Shown here piece by piece: positions 16,974 through 25,219 of a stretch of DNA of 64,000 nucleotides; positions within the stretch are counted from its first letter, which is position 1; each line of letters opens with the position of its first letter. Source of the DNA: Dehalococcoidia bacterium. GTDB lineage: Bacteria; Chloroflexota; Dehalococcoidia; UBA2979. The stretch spans positions 1,536,001-1,600,000 of the forward strand of contig OZ244720.1 of the NCBI GenBank assembly GCA_965219085.1. The letters are read 5' to 3'. The notes beneath the pieces were generated by a model that saw only the letters and a list, made by a program, of their open reading frames with translations, was not told the origin of the DNA and did no database searches. The position numbers were made by a program, and so were the translations under genes.

Positions 16974-17303
16974 TCAGGGCACGGGCTGTTCCCGGGGCTC
17001 GTCGCCCGCCTCGTCGGCGGGGGCGAAGCCGGCCGCGCCGGGGGCGAAGCGCCACCACAGCTTCATCGAGTCCCGCAGCTGCGCGATGCGCTCGGGGCTG
17101 TCGTCCTCGGCGAGGCAGCGTTCGAGGTGCGTGTCGAGGATGAGCGCACCGGCGGTGTCGATGCCGGAGCGCACGGCCATGAGCTGCGTGACGATGTCCT
17201 CGCAGGCGCGCTCGTTTTCGAGCATGCGGGCGATGCCGCGGATCTGGCCCTCGATGCGACGCAGGCGTGCGCTGACCTGGTCCGGGGTTGCCGAGTCGTT
17301 CAT
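16974..17303 (-). CDS. CsoR/RcnR-family metal-sensing repressor
   Basis: RLRRIEGQIRGI...C EDIVTQL...HLERC (C-H-C fingerprint). Confidence 0.92.
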   Translation of the reverse strand: MNDSATPDQVSARLRRIEGQIRGIARMLENERACEDIVTQLMAVRSGIDTAGALILDTHLERCLAEDDSPERIAQLRDSMKLWWRFAPGAAGFAPADEAGDEPREQPVP

Positions 17304-17593: not shown

Positions 17594-17920
17594 ATGGCAG
17601 CACCGACCAACACTTCCGACACCACCTTCAGCGCTGACGTGCTCGATCACGACACCCCGGTCCTGGTCGACTTCTGGGCCCCCTGGTGCGGCCCGTGCCG
17701 CATGGTCGCCCCCATCGTCGAGGAGCTCGCCGAGGACTACGACGGCCGCGTCAAGTTCGTGAAGCTCAACACGGACGAGAACCCGATGGTCGCCGGCCAG
17801 TACGGCATCCGCTCGATCCCCACGCTGCTCGTCTTCAAGGGCGGCGAGAAGGTCGGCGAGATCATCGGCTTCCGCCCCAAGGGCGACCTCTCCAAGCGCC
17901 TCGACGACGCGCTCGCCTAG
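17594..17920 (+). CDS. trxA: Thioredoxin
   Basis: [19 protein letters not shown]; AAAGGA RBS. Confidence 0.96.
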
Positions 17921-18169: not shown

Positions 18170-18610
18170 TTACTTGCGGATGGTGCGGCCCTGCTTCTCC
18201 TCGAGGCGGGCGAGGGCGCGCCCCTTGTCGGGGTGCGGGTCCTTCACGAGGCCGTAGATCTCGCGGCCTTCGTGGTCTGCTGGGAGGTACTCGGTGATGG
18301 GAAGACCTTCCTCATTACAGAAGAGCAGTCAGTGGCAGTACTTGAACTTCTGCATCTCCTCGCAGGCGCAGATCCACGTCGAGCGTGTGACCTCCTCCTG
18401 CTTGTCGTCGTAGAAGTTGCAGGGGCAGAGCGGGCGCCCGAGGTCGTCGACGTGCTTGGCGAGGCCGATCACGAGGAACTCGGTGATCTCGCGCTGGGGG
18501 TGCAGGTACGAGCCGCTCTTCTCGGCGAACTTCTCGACGAACTTCCACATCCGGTTCAGCGACTTCTCCGACGCCTCCGCGCGGTCGGCGTCGGTTGGCT
18601 GTTCGAGCAC
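18170..18610 (-). CDS. Ferredoxin:thioredoxin reductase catalytic subunit, selenocysteine-containing (UGA at 18329-18331)
   Basis: CPC...CAC...CH-UGA-LLF matches the FTR CPC/CPC/CHC motifs; frame stays open to TAA at 18170; SECIS-like hairpin follows; start approximate. Confidence 0.88.
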
Positions 18611-18727: not shown

Positions 18728-18897
18728 CGGATGGGCCGCGCGGAGTGGCTTGCGGATCGGTCCGCCGAAGCAAGCAGACGGGCCGCGCAGGGTGGCTTGA
18801 GGGGCGGTCCGCTGAGGCAAGCAGACGGGCCGCGCGGTGTGGCTTGAGGGGCGGTCCGCCGAGGCAAGCAGACGGGCCACCCGAGGGCGGCCCGTCC
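18728..18897. repeat. Three 47-bp tandem hairpin units plus a partial unit forming a terminator-like stem
   Basis: Units start at 18728, 18775, 18822 and 18869; consensus CAGACGGGCCGCGCrGnGTGGCTTGAGGGGCGGTCCGCyGAGGCAAG. Confidence 0.85.
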
Positions 18898-22807: not shown

Positions 22808-22904
22808 GGGAGTGGATGGTGTCCGGTGGCGCCCGCGGTCTTCAAAACCGTTGTGGGGCTGCGTCGCAGTCCCGGGTGGGTTCGACCCCCACGCACTCCC
22901 GCCA
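22808..22904 (+). tRNA. selC: tRNA-Sec (anticodon UCA)
   Basis: 97 nt; GGGAGTG/CACTCCC-GCCA acceptor; anticodon arm GCGGT-CTTCAAA-ACCGT; long variable arm; GTGGG-TTCGACC-CCCAC T arm; TAGAAT -10 upstream. Confidence 0.95.
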
Positions 22905-23018
22905 GGCGGCACTGCTGCCCTCTTGCAGGAGTTGGGCTGGCCGTGCGACGGGTCGGAGAGTGCTTGGTCGGCTGGTTGCGCGCCCACCGATCGAGCAGCG
23001 GCGCAGCCGGGCACACGT

Positions 23019-24008
23019 CTACGAGTTCGAAGCGGAGTCCTGTGGCAGCGCTCCAAAGATACGATGCGCAAGCGTGTTGAGCTCTGTCAGTTCATCACGC
23101 GTCGCGTCGCCTCGGTGTGTCGCCGCGATTGCTATCTCGGACACCGCCACGTGGTCCTTGTTCGCGGGATCGTAGTCGGGGAGATCCACGTATTCGGCTA
23201 CGCTCACGCCGAGAGACAGTTGGGATGCATAGGCGCCGATGGCGTCTGCCGCGACTGGTGCATTGAGCAGCCCCGCAATGAACGAGGCCGGCCGTTCTTC
23301 GTCAAACGGAATGAAAATGAAGTAGAGCTTGTGGTCCGGAATCACCGGGCGCCTGCCCAACCCTTTGATATCAACCGGGCCAGCCAGGGCGGCGATGAAC
23401 CTCCCGCCACTCATCTCCCTCCAAACAACCTTTGTAGGGGCTGAAGGTGTAGGGCCCCGTCGACCATAGCGACCAGTAGGGTTGGCCTCTTTGGTCACGC
23501 CGGTAGCTCCCTCGAGCTTCCAGGTGAGAGCGGAAGGCCGAAAGGAACTTGTGCATACCTGGGCTGTTGGCGGGCAAGTCAGGATCTCCATGCATCCCTC
23601 GTTGAGGTACGAGCACTTGCAGGTCCTCGTCTGTCTTGGCTTGGAATCGAGATACGCCGCGTCCCCGAAGTAGTGGGAACACGTGCTCCGCTTCAACCTG
23701 TCCCGTGCGTCGTGCAACTCCCTTCGTGCGTCCGGCGCTCGGCTCGTTGGTAACGGTTGCAACGCCGTTATCAATCCCGTCGACGCGCACCCAATAGATT
23801 CCATTGCGGTCCGTCGTGATCCCTTTCCGGGCCCGGTAGCTTGTCTTACCAGCGCCGAAGACAGACTTCCATAGAACCAGATCGGATTGCGAGCCGCGCA
23901 GCCATGGGCCTGCGTCTGAACCTGGAACCGGCTCGGCGAAGTAGACGGTGGCAGTGGTTGTCTCCGACAGGCGCAAACCCGATGCGACCGATGCAATCAC
24001 AGCGTCGC
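23019..24008 (-). pseudogene. C-terminal remnant of a type IIG-like restriction-modification/N6-methyltransferase protein, frameshifted
   Basis: RKGITTD..., PLLRGRGVSRF, FSPYK|VVWREMSG split across two frames near 23430; lower GC. Confidence 0.65.
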
Positions 24009-24068
24009 TGACCTGACCCCTTGAAACGGGACCACCGTTGATGAGAGTCCTTTGGCCCATGAAAGTGG

Positions 24069-24365
24069 GTGGAGGAGGACATCACGGTGAAACGACGCAG
24101 GCACACGCCCGAGCAGATCGTGCGGAAGCTGCGCGAGGTGGAGCGGCTGCTCGGTGAGGGGCAGACGATCGCCGAGGCGGCGAAGCAGGTCGAGATCTCG
24201 GAGCAGACCTACCACCGCTGGCGCAACCAGTACGGCGGGATGAAGGCCGACGACGCCAAACGGCTGCGCGAGCTGGAGCGCGAGAACGCCCGGCTGAAGC
24301 GGATCGTCGCCGACAAGGAACTCGAGATCGACGCGCTCAAGGAGATCGCCCGGGGAAACTGGTAA
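24069..24365 (+). CDS. IS3 transposase OrfA
   Basis: KRRRHTPEQIVRKL...TYHRWRNQYGGM...LERENARLKRIVAD. Confidence 0.92.
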   Translation: MEEDITVKRRRHTPEQIVRKLREVERLLGEGQTIAEAAKQVEISEQTYHRWRNQYGGMKADDAKRLRELERENARLKRIVADKELEIDALKEIARGNW

Positions 24366-25219
24366 GCCCGTCGCGCCGGCGCGAGGCAGTCTGCATGTTG
24401 CAGGACCGCCTCGAGTTGTCGGAACGGCGGGCATGCCGGGTCACCGGCCAGCACCGCTCCACACAGCGCCGCCTCCCGGTGCGCGGCCGCGGCGACGACG
24501 CGCTGCGCGCGGAACTCCACGCCTTCTCGCGTGGCCACCCCCGCTGGGGCTACCGCCGGGCCTGGGCGACCTTACGCGAGGAGGGATGGGGCGTGAATCG
24601 CAAGCGGGTGCAACGGCTCTGGCGTGAAGAAGGGCTGCGCGTCCCGGTGAAATGGCGCAAGCGTCAGCGCCTGGGGGACTCGGCGGTGCCCGCCGCCAGG
24701 CTGCGCGCTGAGCGGCCGAACCACGTCTGGGCGCTGGACTTCCAGTTCGACCAGACCGCGGACGGGCGGGTCCTGAAGCTGCTCAACATCGTCGACGAGC
24801 ACACACGGGAGGCGCTGGCGATCGTGGCCGCCAGGAGCATCAACGCCGACGCCACGGCCTCAACGCTCGACGGGATCGTCGCCCGGCGCGGGACGGCGCC
24901 TGGGTACATCCGTTGCGACAATGGGCCCGAGCTCACGGCCAACGCGCTGCGCGACTGGTGCCGGTTCAGCGGTACGGGCAGCAGCTACATCGAGCCCGGT
25001 GCGCCGTGGGAGAACCCGTACGTGGAGTCGTTCAACGGCCGGCTGCGCGACGAGTTCCTGCCGGTCGAGCAGTTCGACAGCCTGCTCGAGGCGCAGGTGC
25101 TGCTCGAGGACTGGCGGATCGAGTACAACACGAAGCGCCCGCATAGCAGCCTGGGCTGGCTCGCCCCGGCTGCCTACGCCGAGCGCTGGGAGACTCAGCT
25201 ACACGCTGGACTCTCATAA
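24362..25219 (+). CDS. IS3 transposase OrfB (DDE; reached by -1 frameshift)
   Basis: WALDF, DNGPE, PGAPWENPYVESFNGRLRDE, YNTKRPHSSLG. Confidence 0.92.
   Translation, partial: VSPSRRREAVCMLQDRLELSERRACRVTGQHRSTQRRLPVRGRGDDALRAELHAFSRGHPRWGYRRAWATLREEGWGVNRKRVQRLWREEGLRVPVKWRKRQRLGDSAVPAARLRAERPNHVWALDFQFDQTADGRVLKLLNIVDEHTREALAIVAARSINADATASTLDGIVARRGTAPGYIRCDNGPELTANALRDWCRFSGTGSSYIEPGAPWENPYVESFNGRLRDEFLPVEQFDSLLEAQVLLEDWRIEYNTKRPHSSLGWLAPAAYAERWETQLHAGLS

Follow-up and report, generated by a model that had tools for sequence, protein, structure and literature searches.

The stretch of DNA analysed here (hereafter the window) comprises 64,000 nucleotides of contig OZ244720.1 from a Dehalococcoidia bacterium (GenBank assembly GCA_965219085.1; positions 1,536,001 to 1,600,000 of the forward strand). 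Its minus strand carries, preceded by groES-groEL on the same strand, a gene whose product is homologous to the catalytic chain of ferredoxin:thioredoxin reductase (FTR) and in which one in-frame UGA codon is predicted to specify selenocysteine (Sec). The features of the locus, with coordinates counted from the first letter of the window, are the following:

18170..18610, minus strand: gene for the single-Sec homologue of the FTR catalytic chain (146 residues, GTG start, UGA as residue 94, TAA stop)
18329..18331, minus strand: in-frame UGA predicted to be read as selenocysteine (U94), as judged from the translation, the alignments and the codon TGA in relatives
18296..18316, minus strand: SECIS-type hairpin, nt 16–36 counted from the U of UGA, as judged from core identity, covariation and fdhF geometry
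18173..18313, minus strand: conserved C-terminal extension, residues 100–146, with invariant columns and beyond the Pfam match
17594..17920, plus strand: convergent thioredoxin with WCGPC, 108 aa, a putative substrate (Pfam Thioredoxin, 9.5e-33; translation)
22808..22904, plus strand: tRNA-Sec with anticodon UCA (ARAGORN; Rfam RF01852, 73.7 bits)

The gene starts with GTG at 18610, with GGGAG just before it on the minus strand. The open reading frame listed for this region, 18329..18610 (minus strand), closes at TGA after ...KFKYCH. A preliminary description of this DNA had named UGA as the stop of the listed frame and had proposed that the frame continues to ...TIRK, and both points hold: TGA was confirmed at 18329–18331 on the minus strand, and past it the frame reads LLFCNEEGLPITEYLP...TIRK, staying open for 52 further codons up to the TAA at 18170–18172. 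A 47-nt unit is tandemly repeated in the interval from the groEL stop to the FTR start (18733–18878; 3.1 copies, 89% matches); BLAST found the repeat nowhere else in the genome, and it folds only weakly better than its shuffles (z −1.69).

Family, fold and position of the UGA codon

The read-through product matches Pfam family PF02943 (FeThRed_B) over residues 18–101 with 83 bits (cut-off 22; 1.8e-23), and a genome-wide search with PF02943 returned this gene only (77.3 bits), with one TGA inside the match. Against the FTR catalytic chains of the PDB, phmmer gave E-values of 3.9e-24 for 7bzk and 4e-21 for 1dj7, the CHC of these chains standing opposite CH-UGA. The AlphaFold2 model has a mean pLDDT of 78 and is least confident around the active site (block means of 59–75 for residues 71–100); when it was submitted to Foldseek, PDB ranks 1–10 were all FTR catalytic chains (probability 1.00, TMt 0.61–0.67).

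The protein contains the cysteine set C62-P-C64 + C81-A-C83 + C92-H93-U94, where the six FTR positions and the histidine are kept and the sixth position is the UGA; the middle motif CAC, already named in the preliminary description, is seen in the translation. As aligned with 1DJ7, residue n of the window protein corresponds to residue n−7 of the Synechocystis chain, which places C62, C64, C81, C83, C92 and U94 at positions 55, 57, 74, 76, 85 and 87, respectively. We take positions 55, 74, 76 and 85 of FTR to ligate the [4Fe-4S] cluster, and 57 and 87 to form the redox-active disulfide. In FTR, Cys57 is the residue that attacks thioredoxin. Its partner Cys87 forms a bond with a cluster iron in the one-electron intermediate and afterwards resolves the disulfide by which enzyme and thioredoxin are joined; these residue roles reportedly go back to the mechanistic work of Dai et al. 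in 2000 and Dai et al. in 2007. Given the alignment to 1DJ7 and these roles, the UGA would thus lie at the cluster-side partner of the redox-active pair.

Among public proteins, the 24 full-length homologues (out of 120 listed matches) that were aligned with the window protein all have cysteine at the TGA column, and similarity carries on beyond it. A homology search with just these two signs, a cysteine opposite the UGA and similarity past it, had been proposed earlier, and both are present in 24 of 24 homologues. The earlier assignment of Sec to the last cysteine of CHC likewise agrees with the alignment, as the codon stands opposite cysteine in the solved FTR chains and in all of these homologues. 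The canonical FTR catalytic subunits of cyanobacteria and chloroplasts (1DJ7, 2PUK, 7BZK and 7C3F) are 35–41% identical to the window protein and share with it all six positions, the active-site histidine and the fold, whereas the window protein has Sec for the last cysteine, CAC instead of CPC as the middle motif, and a C-terminal extension in a genome where the variable subunit was not found. The search for the latter (PF02941, FeThRed_A) gave no match in the genome (3.3 Mb, 92.7% complete), and its control was matched in Synechococcus; the preliminary description had remarked that no variable subunit gene is adjacent.

The Pfam match stops at residue 101, and the invariant columns G102...A132 lie in the tail, where the 24 homologues have in common LLF.NEEGLPITEYLPEDHEGREIYG..DP.PDKGRA, a stretch with many invariant columns. 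No Pfam family was found for residues 100–146 at E ≤ 10. The idea that the 47-residue tail structurally replaces the variable chain found no support: the Foldseek match to 7c3f_V has an E-value of 8 and a probability of 0.06, and no Pfam family covers the tail.

Decoding of the UGA codon

Near-full-length matches from 60 relatives and the window's own genome amount to 35 rows, with one in-frame TGA in 32 and none in the other three. Within the window's own genus, an in-frame TGA occurs in 18 of 18 matches (86–99% identity). Scripted placement of the codon at 30 loci of relatives gave TGA in 27 and TGC in three, and in 80 public loci of Chloroflexota/Dehalococcoidia the codon is TGA (59 loci), TGC (19) or TGT (2). 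Raw reads with TGC or TGT had been named earlier as a result that would speak against Sec; at the level of contigs rather than reads, the DNA runs of three studies span the codon with no difference listed at 18329–18331 (160 further differences are left undisplayed), and two contigs bridge it, one of 137 nt from X1 with no other letters and one of 154 nt from X6 with a single one. Short contigs from metatranscriptome run X13 also touch the gene; each of them has 7–11 other letters. They derive from relatives and are silent on decoding.

Downstream of the codon, GGAAGGUCUUCC is located at 18311..18300, its first nucleotide 17 nt past the UGA. It belongs to a hairpin (18316..18296) consisting of a 4-bp upper stem GGAA/UUCC, a GGUC tetraloop, a bulged A (nt 20) and AUG/CAU beneath, which spans nt 16–36, begins 13 nt downstream of the UGA and has its GGUC loop at nt 25–28. 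The preliminary description had correctly placed a hairpin here, about 18 nt downstream, and the AGGUCU core that it considered common with E. coli fdhF was recovered from the K-12 record sequence; the 2-nt GU loop it drew is impossible, and the loop is GGUC.

GAAGGTCTTCC occupies nt 22–32 in 69 of 70 distinct TGA forms versus one of 22 Cys forms, as counted on 92 distinct 60-mers beginning at the codon. The same residues E-G-L-P are written in 18 different codon strings in the Cys forms, and GAA, GGT and CTT are unusual codons for a genome of 70% GC. The structure tested on 58 distinct TGA sequences (pairs 16-36, 17-35, 18-34 and 19-33, nt 20 bulged, then 21-32 to 24-29) has 91.6% of its cells paired, and pair 19-33 covaries (GC 24, UG 21, CG 6, GU 2). 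When the partners were slid by 1–3 columns, at most 63% were paired, while an alternative register that moves the bulge to nt 18 is better for UCG-type sequences and worse overall (81.3%). None of 500 shuffles matched the observed paired percentage or the covariation score, a figure which, like the Mann-Whitney p of the comparison of Sec with Cys forms, overstates the evidence because the compared sequences are kin; the contrast between Sec and Cys forms is the stronger argument. The fold of a single sequence, 79 nt around the UGA, is no better than its shuffles (z +0.72), and Rfam at gathering level reports the tRNA-Sec only, with no family at the hairpin, so that it is the comparative data that carry the hairpin beyond chance.

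The parallel drawn here is with the SECIS of E. coli fdhF, which in the K-12 record reads ...GGUUGCAGGUCUGCACC... after its UGA, with GGUC at nt 22–25, a 4-bp upper stem and a bulged U17. Both elements have a GGUC loop closed by A-U, an upper stem of 4 bp and a bulge five positions 5' of the loop, whereas the loop in the window is one codon farther from the UGA (nt 25–28 versus nt 22–25), the bulge is A or C instead of U, and the stem sequences differ. The comparison supports the putative identification of the hairpin as an element of SECIS type kept by selection. A scan of the whole genome for TGA followed by a GGU-loop hairpin in open frames was discarded as an outline of the selenoproteome, as nearly all of its 111 matches are noise at 70% GC.

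If the TGA were a true stop, or an error of sequencing or assembly, the locus would hold a pseudogene or a truncated protein of 93 residues. Gene callers agree on such a stop, and the single-sequence fold is not significant. With the N-terminal 93 residues as query, 111 of 112 new database matches end in ...CH and so are cut at the Sec codon. Against a stop, the TGA recurs in dozens of genomes that were assembled independently and encode products 63–95% identical to this one, the 52 downstream codons are open and among the most conserved columns, synonymous sites are frozen in TGA forms only, and the contigs of three studies, with X1 and X6 bridging the codon, have no difference listed there. 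Sequencing error or a pseudogene is ruled out by the conservation of TGA and tail across the relatives' loci, and the probability of a stop in any of these forms is regarded as negligible.

The genome, a single contig, encodes the machinery for Sec insertion. The tRNA-Sec gene on the plus strand is about 4.5 kb away from the FTR gene (about 4 kb in the preliminary description), and the three proteins whose presence was to be checked, SelA (451 bits), SelB (301 bits versus a cut-off of 242) and SelD (366 bits), all score above their curated cut-offs. The frame of selD, too, contains a TGA, located at the CGG-U site. TGA closes 633 of 1254 open frames of at least 500 codons and is thus an ordinary stop in this genome.

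A reading of the UGA as something other than Sec, either by Cys carried on tRNA-Sec at low selenium or by near-cognate Trp or Cys tRNAs, would make the product mostly a Cys enzyme. Cys at Sec codons is a known possibility when selenium is limiting. This explanation is considered very improbable in view of the full sel set with a Sec-containing SelD and the SelB-type hairpin, and of the Cys lineages, which changed the codon itself to TGC or TGT (21 of 80 loci, among them L101 with its hairpin).

Several further observations concern the Sec system of this organism. The selD gene (G000:C1:475714), itself a selenoprotein gene, has a GGGUC-UCGC-GACCC hairpin after its UGA. An organism-wide loop consensus for SelB derived from this hairpin was rejected, because the selD loop UCGC differs from the GGUC loop of the FTR gene; a common consensus is thus not shown. 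At seven sites outside the window (G000:C1, near 876999, 894640, 2155356, 2247527, 3092513 and 3278759, and a seventh), an element of about 50 nt, almost the same each time, stands at the ends of otherwise unrelated open frames. It has the layout ...LAGC, TGA and a following hairpin of 6 bp whose loop is GGUC, and could be a repeated terminator, a REP-like element or a family of selenoproteins ending in ...GCU. Right after the tRNA-Sec, the GC content drops from about 0.71–0.81 to 0.60–0.63 (23000–24199); the region 22905–25219 holds ORFs lacking Pfam matches and then an IS3-type transposase (24395–25219; rve, rve_3, HTH_21), and resembles an insertion of foreign DNA next to the gene for tRNA-Sec.

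Sec and Cys forms and the previously predicted selenoprotein FTRs

The Cys single-subunit homologues (e.g. P0003, P0005 and P0046), which occur in Dehalococcoidia and other bacteria, are 66–81% identical to the window protein over the full length, tail included, and carry TGC or TGT where the window form has TGA; the frozen hairpin of the window form is absent from them. A quick maximum-likelihood tree of 96 distinct proteins, computed on 132 columns, had the Sec column masked and the column of the residue four positions later (+4) kept; L112 and L117 were omitted as incomplete. Support in this tree is moderate. The Cys forms are basal, and one clade of 75 rows contains 73 Sec and two Cys forms (SH-aLRT 90). 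L036 is set apart from this main Sec clade, beside a Cys form, and the tree requires at least four changes of state.

L036 (1612–1659) and L065 have TGA at the same codon, with another hairpin in place, GAUGG-CGUG-CC(C)AUC, and may represent a second, independent change from Cys to Sec. Two further loci have TGC at the Sec position: L101 (3277–3324) with an intact GGAAGGTCTTCC hairpin and the +4 Cys, and L111 with a decayed hairpin, GGAAGGCCTCCC, and the +4 Cys. From codon and hairpin, L101 looks like a recent and L111 like an older reversion from Sec to Cys.

The +4 residue itself, codon 98 of the window gene (18317–18319), is Cys (U-L/M-L-F-C) in every Sec form with the GGAAGGUCUUCC hairpin among loci L013–L122. 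In the Cys forms it is Val or Leu, Val being usual in the single-subunit homologues compared above; exceptions are the loci L101 and L111 and, in the protein alignment, P0025. The separately placed Sec forms L036 and L065 have Val. This Cys could reflect a constraint of the SECIS stem (G14 could pair with C38), a protein partner of Sec, or inheritance within one clade. An obligatory coupling of Sec and the +4 Cys was rejected: the association comes from one clade and is not supported by independent events, as L036 and L065 have Val, while Cys persists in both revertants, L101 and L111.

That Sec-containing FTRs might already have been predicted was suspected in the preliminary description, and such predictions do exist. 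A selenoprotein family consisting of homologues of the FTR catalytic subunit was reported as new on the basis of two GOS reads (Zhang & Gladyshev 2008, PMC2398784); in the supplement of that paper the two reads share a single short type and, as far as they can be read, show CPU and CIU, the second one ending before the CIU site. Tables of two reviews list an FTR selenoprotein family, as COG4802 with CxU (PMC9312934) and as NF041072 with CxU and two Sec (PMC13188914), and BSepDB, with 46–49 selenoproteins in Dehalococcoidia, may include the genes considered here (PMC13326102). No description of a single-Sec CHU clade was found in searches of the literature on FTR selenoproteins or on selenoproteins of Dehalococcoidia.

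On NF041072, the NCBIfam model of the double-selenoprotein FtrB, the window protein scores 38.5 bits (33.2 in the genome search) against a cut-off of 160, and apart from this below-cut-off match no family of NCBIfam release 20.0 was found for it. Instead of the two UGA codons by which NF041072 is defined, the window gene has a single one, and its CPC retains Cys64. The double-Sec FtrB resembles the window protein in belonging to the FTR catalytic-chain fold family, in having Sec at CxU beside the cluster and in occurring in Dehalococcoidia as well. It differs in having two Sec at both redox-active positions (CPU...CIU) and about 104–121 residues, whereas the window protein has one Sec, a kept CPC and a conserved tail of 47 residues. 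True double-Sec FtrB genes (two TGA; 186–214 bits on NF041072) were found in 30 of 301 sampled Dehalococcoidia genomes, L127–L132 among them, and matches below the cut-off with one TGA make up about 50 rows of the same sample, the window's genus included; one of these rows belongs to a genome flagged as unpublished (G271), and no conclusion depends on it. The true double-Sec genes sit in other families than the window's, and there is a further FTR-like group with one TGA at about 45–50 bits (e.g. G185, G201 and G092).

Compared with public proteins, the full-length product is at most 81% identical among the best 120 matches, though genomes of the same genus encode products 86–95% identical to it. 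As far as the sequences indicate, the gene is best seen as of a kind already predicted in print and as a member of a distinct, widespread single-Sec subfamily that family models and gene callers miss.

Candidate redox partners, proposed mechanism and significance

The convergently encoded WCGPC thioredoxin of the preliminary description is present at 17594–17920 on the plus strand. Such a convergent thioredoxin lies within 1.5 kb of the FTR gene in 32 of 86 Sec loci and in none of 24 Cys loci, an arrangement limited essentially to the window's genus, where it occurs throughout, and some neighbouring genera. The commonest neighbour is ribosomal protein S14, directly downstream on the same strand (56 of 80 loci). 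With 32 of 86 Sec loci having the thioredoxin and S14 being the usual neighbour elsewhere, the linkage to thioredoxin is suggestive only. Among the same 80 loci (L043–L122), 28, all of them Sec forms, have a PAC2-family gene about 1 kb upstream. A CsoR/RcnR-type metal-sensitive repressor (16974–17303, minus strand; Trns_repr_metal, 1.6e-24) is encoded shortly upstream of trxA, on the strand opposite to it.

The genome has a sole gene for a TrxB-like flavoprotein (L124, G000:C1:2164432-2165337), which scores 252 bits against an NCBIfam cut-off of 343 and contains the redox motif CSTC and YRGDR in the NADPH site. NADPH-dependent enzymes presumably have HRR where this protein reads YRG. To judge from its score and these motifs, it could be something other than a classical NADPH-dependent thioredoxin reductase.

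FTR-like catalytic domains working without a variable subunit are represented by 4TPU, a ferredoxin:disulfide reductase from Methanosarcina acetivorans, and 7PWE, the Grx-FDR fusion from Desulfotalea, which are far more distant from the window protein (E 2e-07 and 1e-03, respectively) and, unlike it, bear extra rubredoxin or glutaredoxin domains and no Sec. The window protein could, like these enzymes, be a selenoprotein of the FTR fold that is no thioredoxin reductase and acts on another disulfide or with another donor. Such a role would suit the missing variable subunit, the conserved tail outside any Pfam family, the thioredoxin synteny, which only a subclade shows (32 of 86 Sec loci), the fact that 4tpu and 7pwe are detectable as relatives, and the presence of a TrxB-like flavoprotein (252 bits) in the same genome. 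It is nevertheless rated unlikely, as true FTR chains are far closer (E 4e-24 to 1e-19) than 4tpu or 7pwe, Pfam gives one family with neither a rubredoxin nor a glutaredoxin domain, the set CPC...CxC...CH(C/U) with its histidine is retained, and a canonical TrxA is encoded convergently throughout the window's genus.

The gene is thus read here, with a probability of roughly 0.85, as encoding a genuine selenoprotein that is a single-subunit homologue of the FTR catalytic chain, with presumed roles for ferredoxin and TrxA. In the mechanism proposed for it, SelB and Sec-tRNA(Sec) would decode UGA 94 under the direction of the hairpin at nt 16–36. Cys62, Cys81, Cys83 and Cys92 are predicted to hold the [4Fe-4S] cluster, beside which Cys64 of CPC and Sec94 of CHU would form a redox-active selenenylsulfide. 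By analogy with FTR, reduced ferredoxin would feed electrons to the cluster, the Cys64-Sec94 selenenylsulfide would be cleaved with the selenium bonding to a cluster iron, and Cys64 would attack thioredoxin, after which the selenolate of Sec94 would probably resolve the mixed disulfide. The convergent TrxA is the candidate acceptor, and the conserved tail of 47 residues may take on some role of the absent variable subunit.

A wider proposal, that the protein represents a large, undescribed clade of one-subunit FTRs which is widespread in environmental Dehalococcoidia and gained Sec independently of the double-Sec FtrB, is put forward tentatively, at somewhat less than even odds. If true, the enzyme would have a selenenylsulfide at rest and an Fe-Se bond to the [4Fe-4S] cluster in the intermediate, the latter being expected since only the cluster-side residue is Sec. 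The clade would then comprise a main gain of Sec with a frozen fdhF-like SECIS, a second gain in L036 and L065, and at least one reversal with a fossil hairpin (L101).

For the family, the locus provides a clean example of a SECIS written into coding sequence and of its decay after reversion to Cys. It also offers a natural experiment in which Sec is placed at the buried partner that bonds the cluster and not at the exposed nucleophile, with Cys homologues and a double-Sec cousin available for comparison. For Dehalococcoidia, it means that a common redox enzyme is systematically mis-annotated, with gene callers stopping at residue 93, and, should the wider proposal hold, this enzyme may be the main thioredoxin reductase of organisms in which the only TrxB-like protein is divergent.
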